Shown here: positions 1-18,092 of the stretch, piece by piece | How positions within the stretch are numbered: the stretch's first letter is position 1 | Layout: each line of letters starts with the position of its first letter | IMG/VR virus record: IMGVR_UViG_2529292734_000006 | Strand: one strand, 5' to 3' | Origin: a virus | Taxonomy: Duplodnaviria > Heunggongvirae > Uroviricota > Caudoviricetes | DNA: 21,898 nt | Made by a program: the position numbers and the translations under genes | Notes under the pieces: generated by a model | Databases searched by the model: none | Told to the model about the DNA's origin: nothing | Seen by the model: the letters and a program-made list of their open reading frames with translations, nothing else

Positions 1-882
1 GATCATCCCGGACATACGTCCAGATGCGCCCTGTTTTCGTCTTTTTCAGGCCCGGTGCCAGTACCTTTACCGGTGTGTCGTCAGTGTGAAGCTTGCGGGT
101 ATTCATCACATAACGGTACAGGGCATCATTCAGCGGCGTCATTAACTGGCAGCACGCGTCAACCCAGTTGGAGAGTAATGCACGGCTCAGTTCGACACCC
201 TGTCGGGCAAAGATTTCACTCTGACGATACAGTGGCAGGTGTTCGCAGTATTTTCCCGTTAGCACGCGGGCAAGTAATCCAGGGCCCGCGATACCACGCT
301 CTATCGGGCGGGACGGCGCCGGTGCTTCAACGATGCAGTCACATTTTGTACAGGCTTTTTTTACCCGTTCTGTGCGGATCACTTTCAGGGCGCTGCTCAC
401 CAGTTCCAGTTGTTCTGCGCTGACTTCCCCCAGATAATCCAGCTCACCGCCACACTCCGGGCAACAGCTTTCTTCAGGCTCCAGGCGGTATATTTCACGG
501 GGGAGATGTGCCGGTAACGGACGACGATGGCGCGACTGTCGCAACTGGCGGGGAACCAGTGGGTCATCCTCACGCCCACTGTAACGATCGCTTTCCTGCT
601 CGCGTTGTTTCAGCAGGGCTTCAGCCTGTTCAACCTCACGACGCAGTTTTTCAGAACGGGTTCCGAACAGCATCCGGCGCAGTTTTTCTATCTGAGCCCG
701 CAGATGCTCTATTTCTCGCTCATCTTCTTCGATCTTTTCTTCGGCACGTGCCAGTGCAGAGCGCAGGAAGGCCTCCGTCTCTTCAACCAGACTCAGTTGC
801 TGGTCTTCTGACGGAGGGCTTCAGCCTGCTCAGAGAGCAGCCTTTCCAGCTCAGCGATGCGAATGAGGTATTTCTGACTCAT
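1..882 (-). pseudogene. IS66-family transposase TnpC (orfC), N-terminal portion; frameshifted and truncated by the window edge
   Basis: ATG at 882 (- strand) opens MSQKYLIRIAELERLLSEQAEAL... and hits TGA after about 32 codons. A different - strand frame continues ...LVEETEAFLRSALARAEEKIEEDEREIEHLRAQIEKLRRMLFGTRSEKL...CCPECGG... (leucine-zipper-like and Zn-finger motifs of IS66 transposases) to position 1. The frame change is near 797-810. Confidence 0.7.
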
Positions 883-931
883 GGCCGTTTTTATAATCCG
901 GCCCGGCGTTTTTTACAACATTGTCAGTGCG

Positions 932-1264
932 TTAAGGCGGGATGTTTTTTGGCTGACGCCAGTCCAGCTTATCGAGGAGCATTGCCAGTTGCGAGCGGGT
1001 AATGGATATCTTACCGTCACGCACCGCAGGCCAGATAAACTGACCTTCCTCAAGGCGTTTGGTGAACAGGCACAGACCATCAGCATCAGCCCACAGGATT
1101 TTAATCGTGTCTCCCCGTCGGCCACGGAAGATAAACAGGTGACCGGAGAAGGGGTTATCATCCAGCACATGCTGTATCTGCTCCCCCAGACCGTTGAAGG
1201 ATTTACGCATATCAGTAACGCCGGCAACGAGCCAGATACGGGTACCTGATGGGAGTGAAATCAT
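932..1264 (-). CDS. IS66-family accessory protein orfB (TnpB)
   Basis: 110-aa ORF; recalled match to IS66 orfB; start overlaps the orfA stop. Confidence 0.85.
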   Translation of the reverse strand: MISLPSGTRIWLVAGVTDMRKSFNGLGEQIQHVLDDNPFSGHLFIFRGRRGDTIKILWADADGLCLFTKRLEEGQFIWPAVRDGKISITRSQLAMLLDKLDWRQPKNIPP

Positions 1265-1698
1265 CGTCCCCTCCCGGTCAGCTCACGGATCAACACCGTG
1301 AGCAGCTCTGGTGAAGGATTTTCCAGCATCATTTTACCGTAATGGAATTCCACATGGCAGGAAGCTGCACAAGCAACTGATAATGCCTCCGGAGCAGGAG
1401 CATCTGTAGCACAGCGCGGGGGGTCGATAAGTTCCACTGGAACCAGAGTCGGAGAGGCCGGAAAAGATTGTGATACTGTAGGGCCTACAATAGTTGGAGG
1501 CATTCTACGAGAAATACGTCCTTCTCTTTGCCAGAGGCGTAGCCATTTAAAAATCAGGTTGTTATCAACGCCATGTTCCCGGGCCAGTTGTGCAACATTG
1601 GCATTTGGTTTCGAAGCCAGTTCAACCATATGAAGTTTAAATTCATTAGAAAATATCCGGCGGGTTCCGGAGCGCCAGTCTGTAGGTTTATCCATCAA
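1261..1698 (-). CDS. IS66-family accessory protein orfA (TnpA)
   Basis: 145-aa ORF immediately upstream of orfB with overlapping stop/start; position and size fit IS66 orfA. Confidence 0.75.
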   Translation of the reverse strand: MMDKPTDWRSGTRRIFSNEFKLHMVELASKPNANVAQLAREHGVDNNLIFKWLRLWQREGRISRRMPPTIVGPTVSQSFPASPTLVPVELIDPPRCATDAPAPEALSVACAASCHVEFHYGKMMLENPSPELLTVLIRELTGRGR

Positions 1699-1750
1699 TA
1701 GAACTCCGTCTAATTTAGAAGGAGCTCTAATTTAGTCTGCAAGGAGCAGG

Positions 1751-1780
1751 TGTTACAGACGGCATTGGCTTTACGCTTAC
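1751..1780 (-). repeat. Terminal inverted repeat of the IS66-family element (IS boundary at about 1780)
   Basis: Reverse complement of 1751-1780 is GTAAGCGTAAAGCCAATGCCGTCTGTAACA, the GTAAGCG-type terminus typical of IS66-family IRs. Exact IR length is not determinable without the other end. Confidence 0.6.
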
Positions 1781-1781
1781 G

Positions 1782-2062
1782 AAAGGAGTCCGTAATTTTG
1801 AGAATAAAGTTACGGTAACTGTAGCCTTACAGGACAAAGAACGCTTTGACGGTGAAATTTTTGGCCTGGATGTCGCCATGGACCGTGTTGAAGGAGCTGC
1901 GCTGGAGTTTTATGAGGCAGCAGCCAGAATGAGCGTCCGGCAAGTCTTCCTGGAAGTAGCAGAAAAATTGTCAGAAAAAGTTGAGTCTTATCTGCAGCAT
2001 CAGTACTCCTTTAAGATTGAAAATCCTGCCAATAAGCACGAGCGTCCTCATCATAAATATCT

Positions 2063-2066
<4 letters not shown>
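1782..2066 (+). pseudogene. 5'-truncated phage ORF of unknown function, open from the IS66 boundary to the endolysin start; probable target of the IS66 insertion (position matches the ydfR-like gene between holin and endolysin in Qin-type prophages)
   Basis: Reading frame is open with no stop from 1782 (first base after the IS end) to TGA at 2064-2066, which overlaps the endolysin ATG. The internal ATG at 1878 has no Shine-Dalgarno. The product is hydrophilic with no transmembrane segment, so it is not a holin. Confidence 0.4.
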
Positions 2067-3090
<1,024 letters not shown>

Positions 3091-3893: not shown

Positions 3894-4009
3894 GCTTAGT
3901 GTCTAGTCGATGGATACTCACATATTACGGTAACATTATGAAAAAATAATAGTTTTTTTAACTCTGAACCAGCAATGGTAGTGCCAGTGATGACCGAGTT
4001 AACACCATC

Positions 4010-5013: not shown

Positions 5014-5376
5014 TCACCATAACTGCTAACCATTCTGACCATTTCACAAGTGACAGAGTCAATATCGTATTCTGTCACTGTAAGGCTAATACAGTACTGC
5101 AATTCAACTACAGCAATGCCTCGTATTTAGGTGAATTTACAATATCGTCCAGTTCGGATGCCGGCTGCATTTCTGAAGATAAGGCATTTCGGTTCGCGTA
5201 TTTTCCCCTCATGCTCGTCAGTCCTGCGCGTAGTAAGAAACAGGACACTCACACTAATTTGTGTGGGCATGCTGTGATGTCCTTCTGAATTATCCCCATG
5301 CCATTATGTAACGCTCTGTTTCAGATGCTCGTCACGGTTGTCAGGCTGTCGGGTCCTCCCAGTGGGGGTCCCTGCC

Positions 5377-6060: not shown

Positions 6061-8162
6061 TGCTGAATCAGGAAACCGCAAAGGCAGCACGAACCGATTC
6101 AGGTTATATCCTTCGCGCACCGAGACGAATGCGGGTTGCTGATGCCGTTGCTCAGTATATGCGGGTGCCCATGGGGGCAGGGAACTCAGTCCCATGGGAT
6201 CCGCTGGTGGCACCGTATGTTATTGAGCCTATGAACTGCCTGGCCTCGCGTGAATACGACGCAGTGATATTTGTTGGCCCGGCACGAACCGGCAAGACTA
6301 TCGGCCTGATTGACGGCTGGGTGATTTACAACGTGATTTGCGATCCTGCTGATATGCTGATCATTCAGATGACGGAGGAAAAAGCCCGCGAACACTCCAA
6401 AAAACGACTCGCCAGAACGTTTCGCGTCAGCCCGGAAGTGGTCAGTCGCCTGAGTCCGAACAAAAATGACAACAACGTTTATGACAGAACATTCCTTGCT
6501 GGCAACTACCTGAAAATCGGCTGGCCGTCAGTCAATATCATGTCTTCATCAGATTATAAATGCGTGGCGCTGACGGATTATGACCGTTTTCCGGAAGATA
6601 TTGATGGTGAGGGGGATGCCTTCTCTCTTGCCTCAAAACGTACCACCACATTTATGTCCAGTGGTATGACGCTGGTGGAGAGTTCCCCCGGCAGGGATGT
6701 GAAGGATGTGAAATGGCGACGGACTTCACCGCATGAGGCTCCACCAACCACGGGGATCCTGTCGCTCTATAACCGTGGCGATCGCCGTCGCTGGTACTGG
6801 CCCTGTCCACACTGTGGTGAGTATTTTCAGCCCTGCGGCGATGTGGTTGCTGGTTTCCGTGATATTGCCGATCCTGTGCTGGCAAGTGAGGCGGCTTATA
6901 TTCAGTGTCCTTCCTGTTCAGGACGGATTTTGCCTGAACAAAAACGCGAGCTGAACGGACGTGGGGTCTGGTTACGGGATGGTGAATCCATCAATGCAGA
7001 TGGCAGTCGTTATGGTGATCCCCGGCGTTCACGTATTGCGTCATTCTGGATGGAGGGTCCGGCAGCTGCTTATCAGACACTCTCGCAACTCGTTTACAAA
7101 CTGCTTACTGCAGAACAGGAATACGAGACAACCGGAAGTGAAGAGACACTCAAGACGGTTATCAATACCGACTGGGGATTACCTTATCTTCCCCGCGCCA
7201 GCATGGAGCAACGAAAAAGTGAATTGCTTGAGCAGCGGGCAGAGCCAGTTCCTTCCCGCAGTGTGCCGGATGGCGTTAATTTCCTTGTGGCGACAGTGGA
7301 TGTGCAGGCGGGACGTCATCGCCGTTTTGTGGTTCAGGTAACGGGCTATGGCAGCCGTGGCGAACGCTGGATTATTGATCGTTACAACATCACGCAGTCA
7401 TTGCGCGGTGACAGCGACGGGGAGAGCCAGCGAATTGATCCGGCCAGCTATCCGGAAGACTGGGATGTCCTGCTGACGGATGTTTTTCATAAAAGCTGGC
7501 CGCTGGCCTCCGACCCTTCTCAACAAATGCGACTGATGGCAATGGCGGTGGACTCCGGCGGTGAAGACGGGGTCACTGATAATGCCTATAAATTCTGGCG
7601 TCGTTGCCGTCGTGATGGCCTTGGTAAACGTATTTACCTGTTTAAGGGCGACAGCATCCGGCGAGCAAAACTGATCACCCGTACATTCCCTGATAACACC
7701 GGACGAACGGGCCGACGGGCGCAGGCCGCAGGTGATGTGCCGCTCTGGCTTCTTCAGACGGATGCCCTGAAAGACCGGGTGAATAACGCGTTATGGCGTG
7801 ACTCGCTAGGTCCCGGCTATGTGCATTTCCCTGACTGGCTGGGGAGCTGGTTTTACGACGAACTGACGTATGAAGAGCGGAGCAGTGACGGGAAATGGAG
7901 TAAGCCGGGTCGCGGTGCCAACGAAGCTTTTGACCTGATGGTGTATGCCGAGGCTCTGGTCATTCTGCATGGATACGAAAAGATCCGCTGGCCGGATGCA
8001 CCGGAGTGGGCGAGCCGGGAAACCTGGCTGGAGTGTGTCCCGGACAGTACCGAACCGTCACCCTCACCGGAACCGGTACCCACGCCTGTTAAAAAACAAA
8101 AACGGAAGAAAACAGTAACTGACGATGTTAACCCCTGGCTGACTTCCGGAGGATGGTTATGA
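6060..8162 (+). CDS. Terminase large subunit (lambda gpA-like; ATPase and endonuclease)
   Basis: 700 aa. Walker A-like FVGPARTGKT; Zn-finger-like CPHCGEYF...CPSCSG resembling the lambda gpA CPHCGE motif; position after the small subunit. Confidence 0.9.
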   Translation: MLNQETAKAARTDSGYILRAPRRMRVADAVAQYMRVPMGAGNSVPWDPLVAPYVIEPMNCLASREYDAVIFVGPARTGKTIGLIDGWVIYNVICDPADMLIIQMTEEKAREHSKKRLARTFRVSPEVVSRLSPNKNDNNVYDRTFLAGNYLKIGWPSVNIMSSSDYKCVALTDYDRFPEDIDGEGDAFSLASKRTTTFMSSGMTLVESSPGRDVKDVKWRRTSPHEAPPTTGILSLYNRGDRRRWYWPCPHCGEYFQPCGDVVAGFRDIADPVLASEAAYIQCPSCSGRILPEQKRELNGRGVWLRDGESINADGSRYGDPRRSRIASFWMEGPAAAYQTLSQLVYKLLTAEQEYETTGSEETLKTVINTDWGLPYLPRASMEQRKSELLEQRAEPVPSRSVPDGVNFLVATVDVQAGRHRRFVVQVTGYGSRGERWIIDRYNITQSLRGDSDGESQRIDPASYPEDWDVLLTDVFHKSWPLASDPSQQMRLMAMAVDSGGEDGVTDNAYKFWRRCRRDGLGKRIYLFKGDSIRRAKLITRTFPDNTGRTGRRAQAAGDVPLWLLQTDALKDRVNNALWRDSLGPGYVHFPDWLGSWFYDELTYEERSSDGKWSKPGRGANEAFDLMVYAEALVILHGYEKIRWPDAPEWASRETWLECVPDSTEPSPSPEPVPTPVKKQKRKKTVTDDVNPWLTSGGWL

Positions 8163-14726: not shown

Positions 14727-15056
14727 ATGCAGTTTGTCATGCGGCTTGCCCGGGAGTTCCGGCGGGCAGACTGGCGGCGGATGCTGTCGGAAATGTCGGC
14801 CACTGAGCTTGGTGAGTGGGGCGATTATTTCCGGATGCAGAGCTTCAGTGATGTGTGGATGGATGCGCAGTTTGCCTCGCTGAAGGCATTGATCGTGAGA
14901 ATGGTGTCCGGCAGCAGTGATGCTGCGGTGGCTGATTTCAGCCTTTTACCGGAAGAGAACGGGATACCGGAGCGAACGGACGAAGAACTGATGCATCTTG
15001 GGGAAGGTATTTCCGGAGGTGTGCGTTATGGACCAGATAGCCAACCTGGTCATTGA
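14727..15056 (+). CDS. Tail assembly protein T, expressed as a G-T fusion by -1 programmed ribosomal frameshift
   Basis: The T frame is -1 relative to G and open from 14694. Candidate slip site GGAAAAG at 14706-14712, just before the G stop. Architecture conserved with lambda G/GT. Coordinates are given from the first ATG in the T frame; the true fusion product would span 14332..15056. Confidence 0.7.
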   Translation: MQFVMRLAREFRRADWRRMLSEMSATELGEWGDYFRMQSFSDVWMDAQFASLKALIVRMVSGSSDAAVADFSLLPEENGIPERTDEELMHLGEGISGGVRYGPDSQPGH

Positions 15057-18000
15057 TTTGGGGATTGATGCGGCAGAGTTTAAAAATGAAATTCCCCGTA
15101 TCAAAAACCTTCTGAATGGTGCAGCCAGCGATGCAGAACGGTCTTCTGCCCGTATGCAGCGTTTTATGGAGCGTCAGACTCAGGCCGCCCGGCAGACAAC
15201 GCAGGCAGCTTCTTCGGCTGCAACAGCCGCATCCGTCCATGCGCAGACGGTGGAGAAGAACGCACAGGCTCATGAACGCATGGCCCGCGAGGTGGAGAAA
15301 ACCCGCCAGCGCATGGAGGCACTGAGCCAGAAAATGCGCGAGGAACAGGCGCAGGCCATGGCTCTGGCGGAGGCTCAGGATAAAGCGGCTGCTGCGTTTT
15401 ATCGTCAGATTGACAGTGTGAAACAGGCCAGTGCGGGGCTGCAGGAATTACAGCGTATTCAGCAGCAGATCCGACAGGCCAGAAACAGTGGCGGGATTGG
15501 TCAGCAGGATTATCTGGCGCTGATTTCTGAGGTTACTGCGAAAACCCGTGTTCTTACACAGGCTGAGGAAGAGGCTACCCGACAGAAAGTGGCGTTTATC
15601 CGTCAGCTTAAAGAGCAGGCAACCCGCCTGAATCTTTCATCTTCTGAGTTGCTTCGTGCTAAGGCAGCCCAGCTGGGGGTAAGCAGTGCTGCAGAAGTGT
15701 ATATCCGCAAAATGGAGCAGGCAGGAAAAGCCACGCATTCGCTGGGTCTGAAAAGTGCAGCAGCCCGCCAGGAGATAGGCGTTCTGATAGGTGAACTGGC
15801 CCGCGGCAATTTAGGGGCGCTGAGGGGATCCGGGATAACGCTGGCTAACCGTGCCGGATGGATAGACACACTGATGTCACCGAAAGGCATGATGCTTGGC
15901 GGGGTTATTGGCGGTATTGCCGCGGCCGTCTATGGTCTGGGTAAAGCCTGGTATGACGGTCAGAAGGAGGGGGAAGAATTTAACCGCCAGTTGTCGCTGA
16001 CGGGGCATTATGCCGGAGTCACTGCCGGGCAGCTGTGGACGCTCAGTCGTGCTATTTCCGGGAATGGTATCACGCAACATGCTGCAGCCGGTGCGCTGGC
16101 TCAGGTGGTGGGGAGTGGTGCATTTCGTGGAAACGATATCGGTATGGTGGCGAGAGCTGCCGCACAGATGGAGCGATCGGTTGGCCAGTCGGTCAGCGAT
16201 ACCATAAATCAGTTTAAGCGGCTGAAGGATGATCCTGTAAATGCCGCGAAGGCTCTGGACAATGAGCTGCATTTTCTTACTGCCACTCAGCTTGAGCAGA
16301 TACGCGTCCTTGGGGAGCAGGGGCGGTCCAGTGATGCTGCACGGATAGCCATGTCTGCACTGGCAGAGGAAACCGGTCGGCGTACTGCGGATATTGATAA
16401 TAACCTCAATGCGCTTGGCAGTACGCTGAAGTATCTGTCTGATTTGTGGAGTCGTTTCTGGGATGCGGCCATGAATATTGGTCGTGAAGACTCGCTGGAT
16501 GAACAGATTGCCGCTTTACAGGAGAAAGTGTCGCGGGCGAAAAGACTCCCCTGGACGGCATCATCTTCTCAGGTTGAATACGATCAGCAGCGTCTTAACG
16601 ATCTTCAGGAGAAAAAACGCCAGAAGGATTTGCAGGATGCAAAAGAGCAGGCAGAGCGGAATTATCAGGAGCAACAGAAACGCCGTAATGCTGAAAATGC
16701 TGCACTGAACCGGATGAATGAAACGGAAGCAGCACGACATCAGCGTGAAATTGCGCGTATTAATGCCATGCAGTACGCCGATCAGGCTGTCAGGGATGCG
16801 GCGATACAACGTGAAAATGAACGTTACGAGAAAGCCCTGGCATCCGGTAAGAAAAAACACGCGAAACCCGTAATGATGAGGCCACCCGGTTATTGCTGCA
16901 GTACAGTCAGCAACAGGCACAGGTGGAAGGACAGATTGCTGCTGCCAGACAGTCAGCAGGCATTGCCACGGAAAGGATGACAGAAGCGCATAAACAGCTT
17001 CTGGCTCTGCAGCAGCGCATCAGCGACCTGGACGGGAAAAAACTGACGGCAGATGAAAAGAGTGTGCTGGCCCGTAAAGATGAACTGATTCAGGCACTGA
17101 CGCTGCTGGATGTAAAACAGCAGGAGCTTCAGAAACAGACGGCACTCAACGAGCTGAAGAAAAAAACAATTCAGCTGACCAGTCAACTGGCTGAAGAAGA
17201 GCGCGCTCAGCGTCAGCAACATGACCTGGATATCGCCACGGTGGGTATGGGTGATCAGCAGCGACAGCGATATCAGGTACAACTGAGTCTTCGCCAGAAA
17301 TACCAGCAACAGCTGGAGCAGTTGAGGCGGGATAGTGAGCAGAAAGGGACATATAACACGGATGACTACAGAAAGGCCGAGCAGGCGCTGACGGAGAGCC
17401 TGAACCGACAACTGAATGAGAATCGCCGTTACTGGCAACAGCTTGAAGTTGTGCAGGGTAACTGGAAAAACGGAGTCCTGCGTGCATTTCAGGATTTTAC
17501 CGTGGATGCAGATAATACGGCAGAAACAGCAGAACAGGTGTTCTCGTCAGCCTTCAGCAACATGGGAAATGGCCTGGCAACTTTTGTCACTACCGGCAAA
17601 CTCAATTTCAAATCCTTCACCTCTTCTGTGCTGTCAGATATGGCGAAAATCCTGGCGCAGGCAACCATGATGAAATCGATAAAAGGGATTGGCAGTGTAC
17701 TGGGATTTGATCTCAGCAGCCTTTCCCTGAATGCCAATGGGGGGATTTATCAGTCTGCTGATTTGAGTCGTTACAGTGGCACGGTGGTTAACCGTCCGAC
17801 GTTTTTTGCTTTTGCAAAAGGCGCGGGTGTGATGGGGGAAGCGGGACCTGAAGCCATTCTGCCATTGCGTCGTGGTGCTGACGGTAAGCTGGGGGTTGTG
17901 GCGGATATTGGGGGTTCAGGTATGGCGATGTTTTCCCCGCAGTACAACATCGAGATCAATAACGATGGCACGAACGGGCAGATAGGTCCGGCTGCCCTGA

Positions 18001-18092
18001 AGGTGGTTTATGACCTTGGGAAAAAAGCGGCAGCGGACTTTATGCAACAGCAGGCCCGTGATGGTGGTCGGTTAAGTGGAGCATATCGGTAA
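15028..18092 (+). pseudogene. Tail tape measure protein H, interrupted by a -1 frame disruption near 16865-16880
   Basis: Two overlapping ORFs (15028..16980 and 16893..18092) both match lambda gpH as recalled: the N-terminal part (DLVIDLGIDAAEF...) and the C-terminal part (...INNDGTNGQIGPAALKVVYD...RDGGRLSG). The frames join at ...KKKHAKPV / NDEATRLLLQYSQQ..., consistent with one missing base in cccgtaatgatgag. ATG 15028 has a GGAGGTG ribosome-binding site. Confidence 0.8.

Follow-up and report, generated by a model that had tools for sequence, protein, structure and literature searches.

We analysed a window of 21,898 bp, which is the whole of the draft contig AIHL01000045.1 and ends inside an insertion sequence (IS), and the reading that we consider very probable is that ISEc47, a common E. 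coli element, has inserted into the ydfR gene of a Qin-like lambdoid prophage that keeps its holin, Q and late promoter, with lysis weakened at most. The first-pass annotation of this DNA had proposed that the element took the position of the holin and removed it. However, two sister assemblies read through the same insertion, and in them the holin gene essD is intact beyond the element. On this evidence, we consider that the holin is displaced by 2.5 kb and not removed.

Identity and end of the inserted element

The left end of the window is 99.8% identical (positions 1-1780) to ISEc47 copies annotated in RefSeq, the full element being 2,541 bp long. The features at this end are as follows.

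1 to 1780, minus strand: right part (1,780 bp) of the IS66-family element ISEc47, 99.8% identical to annotated copies
1 to 882, minus strand: 5' part of tnpC (LZ_Tnp_IS66, zf-IS66 and DDE_Tnp_IS66; PF13007, PF13005 and PF03050)
913 to 1264 (932 to 1264 as read), minus strand: tnpB, IS66 Orf2-like accessory gene (PF05717, 2.5e-36)
1261 to 1698, minus strand: tnpA/orfA, HTH_Tnp_1 accessory gene (PF01527, 2e-10)
1756 to 1780: imperfect terminal inverted repeat of ISEc47, both ends compared in a complete copy of a sister assembly
1781 to 1788: right copy of the 8-bp target-site duplication GAAAGGAG, equal to nt 27-34 of ydfR

By Pfam, the three genes are of the IS66 type and lie consecutively on the minus strand, orfA with an HTH domain, orfB with TnpB_IS66 and orfC with the DDE transposase, and they are directed away from the lysis genes. 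The matches to ISEc47 copies end at window positions 1782-1784, and the flanks beyond are unrelated. The first-pass annotation had placed the end of the terminal repeat at 1780, and an independent complete ISEc47 copy (2,541 bp) confirmed this position, showing the same terminal ...GGCTTTACGCTTAC together with a duplication of its own, GAAAAATA. The tnpA/orfA counterpart in the independent copy is annotated in RefSeq with 144 aa. The repeat at 1780 reads ...ACGCTTAC, with the reverse complement GTAAGCGT..., and the latter opens both ends of the full ISEc47 copies in one sister assembly and in the independent copy, with the IS66-type start GTAAGCG.

The ISEc47 copy in E. coli 602354 (NZ_CP025847.1) has the same three genes, the ACGCTTAC end and an 8-bp target duplication. 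The targets differ, being an NAD(P)H oxidoreductase gene in 602354 and ydfR in the window. In the window, tnpC is cut by the window start and lacks a T from a homopolymer near position 805 in comparison with the reference copies, giving a 1-nt frameshift, and an extra T at 945 alters the 3' end of tnpB, so that its open reading frame (ORF) is read as 932-1264. These two homopolymer indels, which break tnpC and the end of tnpB unlike in the 602354 copy, may be sequencing errors. Across the window, homopolymer indels account for most of the apparent frameshifts, the one in the tape-measure gene included, and these frameshifts should not be read as prophage decay. In the literature, we found a single incidental mention of ISEc47.

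The interrupted gene

The frame from 1782 to 2066 is open, as the first-pass annotation had described for the stretch between the end of the IS and the start of the endolysin gene. All coordinates of that annotation proved correct. Its view that the element truncated the gene preceding the endolysin also held, and we identified this gene as ydfR.

1782 to 2066, plus strand: ydfR remnant, codons 10-103 and the stop codon (DUF1327, 3.6e-45)
1878 to 2066, plus strand: 62-aa ORF reported by gene callers, starting at the internal Met42 of YdfR

Intact ydfR encodes 103 aa and matches PF07041 (DUF1327) with 8.8e-51. The remnant covers 10-93 of the 93 profile positions and lacks positions 1-9; its start codon and first nine codons are absent from the window, and the start codon and the Shine-Dalgarno sequence are on the far side of the IS. 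Window positions 1782-2066 are base-for-base identical to ydfR of the uninterrupted Qin-like prophage of E. coli KE48. We consider that ydfR in the window is a truncated member of this family and in effect a pseudogene. The first-pass annotation had allowed for the 62-aa ORF being a complete gene next to an intergenic insertion; it is an incomplete gene that begins at M42 of the 103-aa YdfR, and the Shine-Dalgarno-like pairing at its start (-3.4 kcal/mol) equals the background of the window. We also considered an IS-ydfR fusion protein and rejected it, as the ydfR frame extends into the IS no further than 1731 and has no start codon in this stretch. In NCBIfam, we found no informative family for essD, ydfR, Rz or Rz1.

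Insertion site and junction

By aligning the window, KE48 and E. coli 33F4, we placed the insertion point after nt 34 of ydfR. The first-pass annotation had suggested looking for an 8-bp duplication at the other end of the IS, and GAAAGGAG is indeed found on both sides of the element in two sister assemblies and once in uninterrupted KE48. The left copy lies beyond the window, whose own left flank is missing, the draft assembly having stopped within the repeated IS. We consider this perfect duplication to be the signature of a real IS66-family transposition.

The draft contig ends within a multi-copy IS, and the window carries several homopolymer indels that resemble sequencing errors. Both would suit an assembly artefact, in which a mis-joined repeat in an old draft left a chimeric contig end. 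We find this explanation hardly credible. The identical right junction occurs in three further assemblies (AIHM01000042.1, AIGT01000016.1 and PGBJ01000060.1), two assemblies span the whole IS, and the sequence that is perfectly duplicated there is single in the uninterrupted gene. We regard the junction as real because it recurs in four assemblies, and it is not a chance feature. The exact 36-mer of the junction had no match among the GTDB representatives, one genome per species, and none of the 5,426 complete E. coli genomes covered both halves of a 241-bp junction query; thus no finished genome among them shows the insertion.

Holin and Q beyond the element in sister assemblies

Both sister assemblies that read across the insertion carry a full essD of 71 aa, which ends 4 bp before the ydfR start and 38 bp from the left end of the IS; nt 1-34 of ydfR lie between essD and the IS. 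The left junction runs from essD through TAATCCA and ATGACTCAATACTATGAACTGGTTGTGAAAGGAG directly into GTAAGCG of the element, and its sequence is GTTGTGAAAGGAGGTAAGCGTCAACGG. The essD protein, read from KE48, matches PF04971, 'Bacteriophage P21 holin S', with 5.5e-36. The 71-aa protein, which starts MKSMDK with the dual-start motif, is intact in both sister assemblies; the holin of the relatives is a member of the P21 S family and shares the MKSM dual start with S21 of phage 21. Q and a pR'-like promoter are located upstream of essD in these assemblies, with the pR'-like promoter and a tR'-like terminator hairpin directly after Q. Accordingly, both the holin and the Q gene, which the first-pass annotation had advised seeking to the left of the IS, are present there in the sister assemblies. 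The sister assemblies differ from the window at 4 and 6 positions over about 8-9 kb (alignment-end gaps excluded). They carry an additional IS2 about 40 bp upstream of essD, which is absent from KE48.

The window itself contains no holin gene, and essD would lie to the left of the contig end. From the sister assemblies, we infer that essD and the rest of this left flank are also present in the genome of the window. Where a contig breaks off within an IS, this does not show that the DNA beyond it has been lost.

The uninterrupted prophage of KE48 (NZ_CP141084.1) is 99.9% identical to the window over 20,118 bp (window 1781-21898). Its gene order is Q, tRNAs, essD, ydfR, rrrQ, rzpQ and cspI, followed further on by the terminase, head and tail genes, and the genome of phage Tritos has the same order of S, ydfR, endolysin and Rz. 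KE48, Tritos and mEp460_ev081 share the cassette with a ydfR free of any IS, and YdfR of mEp460_ev081 is 100% identical to the KE48 protein. The comparison with uninterrupted relatives proposed in the first-pass annotation therefore places the holin upstream of ydfR and not at the IS site. Its premise that the endolysin gene directly follows the pinholin gene does not apply here, as ydfR lies between them in KE48 and Tritos. In phage 21, S is directly followed by R; compared with S21/R21, the present cassette has ydfR as an extra gene separating the holin from the endolysin. The SAR endolysin of Qin-type cassettes is preceded by ydfR, not by the holin.

Endolysin and spanins

To the right of ydfR, the window contains the remaining lysis genes.

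2063 to 2596, plus strand: intact rrrQ (177 aa), predicted SAR endolysin like R of phage 21 and R of 933W (PF00959)
2593 to 3090, plus strand: rzpQ, Rz-type inner-membrane spanin (DUF2514), 165 aa, intact (PF10721, 3.6e-38)
2786 to 3040, plus strand: embedded +1-frame ORF for a putative Rz1-like outer-membrane lipoprotein spanin, assigned by sequence features

The rrrQ product has a phage lysozyme domain (PF00959, 6.2e-24) and aligns to the phage 21 endolysin R21 (3HDE) from residue 9. The two proteins share the E-X8-D-X5-T triad (E35, D44 and T50 in rrrQ) and the N-terminal SAR region. Residues 7-27 of rrrQ, which align to the SAR region of R21, form a weakly hydrophobic N-terminal stretch in which 11 of 21 residues are G, A or S. 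A weakly hydrophobic, Gly/Ala/Ser-rich N-terminal transmembrane stretch is the criterion for SAR endolysins (PMC9239132). We therefore consider rrrQ to be a SAR endolysin, with predicted Sec-dependent export, membrane tethering, and release on depolarisation or by a pinholin. The rrrQ ATG at 2063 overlaps the stop codon of ydfR (ATGA) and has no Shine-Dalgarno sequence, its pairing energy being +1.2 kcal/mol against -8.4 to -10.8 kcal/mol for essD, ydfR and rzpQ. The rzpQ gene is annotated under the same name in KE48. The translation of the embedded ORF has the lipobox LTSC and a Pro-rich mature part, and no NCBIfam model matched it; judged by these features alone, it is a putative spanin partner.

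Consequences for lysis

We propose that ydfR received a copy of ISEc47 (2,541 bp) at its 5' end, immediately behind nt 34, and that this transposition duplicated GAAAGGAG. This event would have inactivated ydfR and pushed essD and rrrQ 2.5 kb apart within the late operon, while the holin, Q and the late promoter would persist to the left of the IS, outside the window contig. Late transcription from pR' could still reach rrrQ through the antisense IS, because Q-modified polymerase ignores terminators and the IS contains no strong plus-strand terminator. Lysis would then be weakened at most, possibly by the loss of translational coupling between ydfR and rrrQ, and would not be abolished.

In the alternative proposed in the first-pass annotation, the IS occupies the holin site and has removed or truncated the holin, so that the endolysin is left without holin and late promoter in a non-lytic remnant. 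The IS directly precedes the endolysin region, the gene before the endolysin is truncated, the window has no holin gene, and phage 21 has S directly before R. Nevertheless, we judge this alternative to be very unlikely. The truncated gene is a DUF1327 gene, of which just the first nine codons are missing, and all relatives have the holin gene upstream of ydfR, where two assemblies with the same insertion show it intact. Moreover, the visible part of the prophage is not a decayed remnant, because its 20 kb are 99.9% identical to the full-length KE48 prophage with complete head and tail genes. A milder effect is possible in that the holin and the endolysin are to some extent decoupled, as their co-transcription must cross 2.5 kb of antisense IS.

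A different route to the same outcome is strong polarity, in which the 2.5-kb IS, or the IS2 further upstream, silences the endolysin, spanin, head and tail genes and neither lysis nor particles result, although each lysis gene is intact. In lambdoid phages, the late genes all rely on one pR' transcript. Here, this transcript would cross the IS antisense as untranslated RNA, a state that favours Rho termination. The IS2 before essD in the sister assemblies is a possible second obstacle. In addition, removal of the ydfR start could lower endolysin synthesis and cause a real lysis defect, which is thinkable because rrrQ, whose ATG overlaps the ydfR stop, lacks a Shine-Dalgarno sequence of its own and may need translation of ydfR. 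Q-modified polymerase, on the other hand, passes both intrinsic and Rho-dependent terminators, and lambda Q suppresses the polarity of insertions, as Forbes and Herskowitz reportedly found in 1982. In scans of the IS end, the whole ISEc47 and IS2 against shuffled controls, we found no strong plus-strand intrinsic terminator in either element and no outward promoter at the ISEc47 end, and the site counts, including those of plus-strand promoter-like and terminator-like sites in ISEc47, were not in excess over shuffled sequence. We accordingly rejected the idea that recognisable signals within ISEc47 drive or block the transcription of rrrQ. In a DLP12-like prophage, rrrQ also has no Shine-Dalgarno sequence and sits after an untranslated gap of 340 bp, so that translational coupling is not obligatory in this family. 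Taking both sides together, we consider strong polarity unlikely, although it deserves more weight than the loss of the holin. Even when no holin is present, SAR endolysins bring about lysis, which is then delayed and less abrupt (PMC9239132). Antitermination by Q and such slow, holin-independent release argue against a simple non-lytic outcome, in keeping with the preferred reading of a weakened lysis at most.

Other lesions in ydfR

Four independent IS insertions were seen between nt 34 and 76 of ydfR, namely ISEc47, IS1, ISEc23 and another IS66-family element, and two different 1-nt deletions were seen in the palindrome-like GTTACGGTAAC of the ydfR 5' end. The holin, endolysin and spanin genes are intact in most of these loci; in one, the lysozyme was called short, with 142 aa. 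A close parallel to the window is found in E. coli 33F4, 32F4, 33E and RM14721, where ISEc23, also of the IS66 family and oriented alike, interrupts ydfR in the same kind of prophage, with essD, rrrQ and rzpQ intact on either side. ISEc23 is about 93.5% identical to the IS of the window over the aligned part (window 1-1370), and it is inserted 31 bp deeper in ydfR, after nt 65, with the duplication CGGTAACT. Because the IS, the site and the duplication differ, we regard it as an independent event.

These clustered lesions could reflect selection against endolysin translation coupled to ydfR. Still, we are doubtful, and strongly so, that the ydfR 5' end is a preferred target of inactivation in Qin-like prophages. 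The ISEc47 insertion itself is an ordinary one of a known kind, in which a small accessory gene of the prophage is disrupted by a known IS. The insertion shows no new way of disarming a lysis cassette, and its value lies mainly in the correct annotation of the locus. YdfR reportedly binds RNase E, according to a recent report. Together with the cluster of 5' lesions, this could justify asking what role YdfR has during lysis. Homologues of YdfR were found in 100 phage records.

Interruption of ydfR by ISEc47

The element at the left end of the window is a copy of ISEc47, of the IS66 family, and the gene that it interrupts is ydfR, not the holin gene. ISEc47 copies annotated in RefSeq match window positions 1-1780 at 99.8%, and the matches stop at 1782-1784 in many unrelated flanking contexts. 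A complete reference copy (locus L014, E. coli 602354; 2,541 bp) carries an 8-bp duplication of its own, GAAAAATA, at its flanks and shares the terminal ...GGCTTTACGCTTAC with the window copy, and this sets the IS end at 1780. Together with three IS66-type genes, this confirms the IS66-family end that the first-pass annotation had placed there.

IS66-type genes in the window (domain matches)
1261-1698, minus strand, gene with HTH_Tnp_1 domain
932-1264, minus strand, gene with TnpB_IS66 domain
882 to the window start, minus strand, gene with LZ, zf and DDE_Tnp_IS66 domains

Compared with the L014 reference and a sister copy, tnpC lacks one T at about 805, resulting in a frameshift, and tnpB has one extra T at 945 that alters its 3' end. 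Both indels fall in homopolymer runs and are more likely sequencing errors; if they were real, this ISEc47 copy would itself be disabled. A look-up of the exact 62-aa product encoded at 1878-2066 led to AIHL01000045.1 (assembly GCA_000250435.2; L007), a contig of 21,898 bp whose first 10,066 bases are identical to the window, indicating that the window is the whole draft contig and that this contig has no sequence further left. Assembly broke off at its left end, inside the IS, a repeated element.

As had been described, an open frame runs from the IS edge (1782) to a stop at 2064-2066, which overlaps the endolysin ATG at 2063 (ATGA). Its 94 codons match Pfam DUF1327 (PF07041; 3.6e-45) over positions 10-93 of the 93-position profile. 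Accordingly, the gene ahead of the endolysin is indeed truncated, although it is ydfR and not a holin gene. Window position 1781 aligns with ydfR nt 27; the IS was inserted after nt 34, and the target duplication comprises nt 27-34 (GAAAGGAG). The 62-aa ORF at 1878-2066 is not a complete gene and corresponds to the part of the 103-aa YdfR downstream of Met42. The insertion inactivates ydfR. In K-12, two-hybrid and pull-down experiments in a 2026 study showed binding of YdfR to the catalytic, N-terminal half of RNase E through a surface in residues 1-72; YdfR also co-purifies with RNA, and ydfR expression is minimal under standard conditions (PMC13232886).

The uninterrupted cassette and the left flank

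The uninterrupted prophage of E. coli KE48 (NZ_CP141084.1) matches window 1781-21898 at 99.9% identity with 12 differences, and like the Qin prophage it has ydfJ at its far end. Aligning the window to this relative, as the first-pass annotation had proposed, puts the IS in ydfR and leaves the holin gene outside it. The RefSeq gene order in KE48 is essD (71 aa), ydfR (103 aa, DUF1327), rrrQ, rzpQ, cspI, gnsB, terminase, portal, capsid and tail. The gap between essD and ydfR is 4 bp, rrrQ overlaps the ydfR stop, and about 2.6 kb separate essD from a Q-type antiterminator gene and two tRNA genes upstream of it. EssD matches PF04971, Bacteriophage P21 holin S (5.5e-36). In phage Tritos, whose genome has been sequenced, the order is likewise S, ydfR, endolysin and Rz. 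Homologues of YdfR were found in 100 phage records, among them relatives of mEp460 and many Stx phages. Since ydfR lies between holin and endolysin in KE48 and Tritos, the premise that the endolysin directly follows its pinholin does not hold for cassettes of this type.

Three sister assemblies, L004 (AIHM01000042.1), L006 (AIGT01000016.1) and L008 (PGBJ01000060.1), share the right junction exactly over 40 nt. With gaps at the alignment ends left out of the count, 4 positions distinguish L004 from the window over about 8.9 kb, and 6 distinguish L008 from it over about 8.4 kb. L006 spans the entire 2,541-bp IS; L004 (about 6760-7232) spans it without 1,372 bp of the interior, owing either to collapse during assembly or to a real deletion inside the element. 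The left junction in L004 and L006 reads ...essD stop-TCCA-ATGACTCAATACTATGAACTGGTTGTGAAAGGAG, followed across the junction by GTAAGCGTCAACGG..., so the predicted 8-bp target duplication is found on both sides of the IS. In both, an essD of full length (71 aa) is found 38 bp from the IS, contradicting the proposed loss of the holin; the L004 copy is identical to that of KE48. Both also match KE48 upstream of essD through the Q gene. Q is immediately followed by a sequence resembling the pR' promoter and by a strong hairpin of the tR' type. An IS2 copy (1,331 bp, duplication CATAA) precedes the essD start by about 40 bp in both (L006 3738-5068). Considering the near-identity and the consecutive accession numbers, we infer the same left flank in the window's own genome, which may or may not include the IS2.

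Three side observations concern these assemblies. In the L006 essD (5109-5324), one Tyr is replaced by Cys (…SAGCWFLQ…) in comparison with L004 and KE48. The IS2 is oriented like the late genes. A promoter-like TGGAAA-16-CATAAT (9/12 matches) is formed where the right end of the IS2 meets the flank.

Expected effect on late expression and lysis

The lysis cassette is split and ydfR truncated; the holin is not removed. Holin and endolysin genes are now separated by 2,549 bp, including the 2,541-bp IS, and RNA polymerase must cross this stretch antisense to the transposase genes. Between a fully polar insertion and late genes that are still expressed, with lysis at most weakened, the second appears more likely. 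Three points speak against a simple non-lytic outcome. On the plus strand of ISEc47 and IS2, a site scan showed terminator-like sites to be no more frequent than in shuffled sequence, and none was strong. Lambda-type Q antitermination reportedly (Forbes and Herskowitz, in 1982) suppresses terminators and insertion polarity. As for the split cassette itself, SAR endolysins are released spontaneously and can lyse cells without a holin, but later and less sharply (PMC9239132).

A defect is possible at the level of translation: rrrQ lacks Shine-Dalgarno pairing (+1.2 kcal/mol, against -10.8 for essD, -9.5 for ydfR and -8.4 for rzpQ). Because its ATG also overlaps the ydfR stop, rrrQ may rely on ribosomes translating ydfR, which suggests coupling of endolysin translation to ydfR in the intact cassette (window 2040-2066). 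The sole in-frame start in the ydfR remnant, ATG 1878, pairs at -3.4 kcal/mol, the background level. In a DLP12-like prophage, rrrQ likewise lacks a Shine-Dalgarno sequence and follows a 340-bp gap, indicating that such coupling is not obligatory.

Endolysin, spanin and the rest of the prophage

The endolysin rrrQ, of 177 aa (2063-2596), contains a phage lysozyme domain and aligns from residue 9 onwards with the structures of the phage 21 endolysin (3HDE) and DLP12 RrrD (4ZPU), including the N-terminal Gly/Ala-rich stretch and E35/D44/T50. Its earlier assignment to the SAR type is thus borne out at the sequence level. The rzpQ gene (DUF2514) is intact, with an embedded lipobox ORF of the Rz1 type.

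Relative to KE48, the window has six single-base indels, mostly in homopolymer runs.

Single-base indels relative to KE48
3940, 3952 and 3995, ynfN region, ynfN split
16851, tape-measure gene, split into ORFs 14998-16980 and 16893-18092
19128 and 20262, tail genes, split

All three ynfN-region indels are absent from L008, and those at 3952 and 3995 from L004; they are therefore probably assembly errors and not prophage decay. Sequencing errors are the simplest reading of the window indels in this old draft. Over the 20 kb in view, the prophage is essentially identical to a full-length one.

Recurrence and novelty

The ISEc47::ydfR allele was found in 0 of 5,426 complete genomes. It is rare, yet not a new kind of thing: a known IS with a known mechanism and a prophage gene as target is an already known, common event.

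Across different assemblies, a cluster of six independent lesions was seen within the first 80 nt of ydfR (nt 34-76), in a sample biased by retrieval of contigs through the 62-aa truncated product.

Lesions in ydfR (L numbers are database contigs or loci)
Window 1781-1830, ISEc47 after nt 34
L010 1-40, IS1 end at about nt 40
33F4, 32F4, 33E and RM14721, ISEc23 after nt 65
L009 1-130, other IS66-family end at about nt 73, opposite orientation
L005 (about 7940)/L013 and L011/L012, two different 1-nt deletions in GTTACGGTAAC
Further loci for the cluster, L001 6040-6050 and 8566-8575; L015, ISEc23 between 1549 and 4066

The ISEc23 insertions are IS66-family events independent of ISEc47 in the same gene, and elements of this family seem to turn up repeatedly near these lysis cassettes. 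In the DLP12-like prophage of E. coli 3359 (L002 4270-6966), ISEc23 is found about 200 bp ahead of essD, and its transposase genes run antisense to the lysis genes; other genomes among the matches appear similar to L002, the one inspected.
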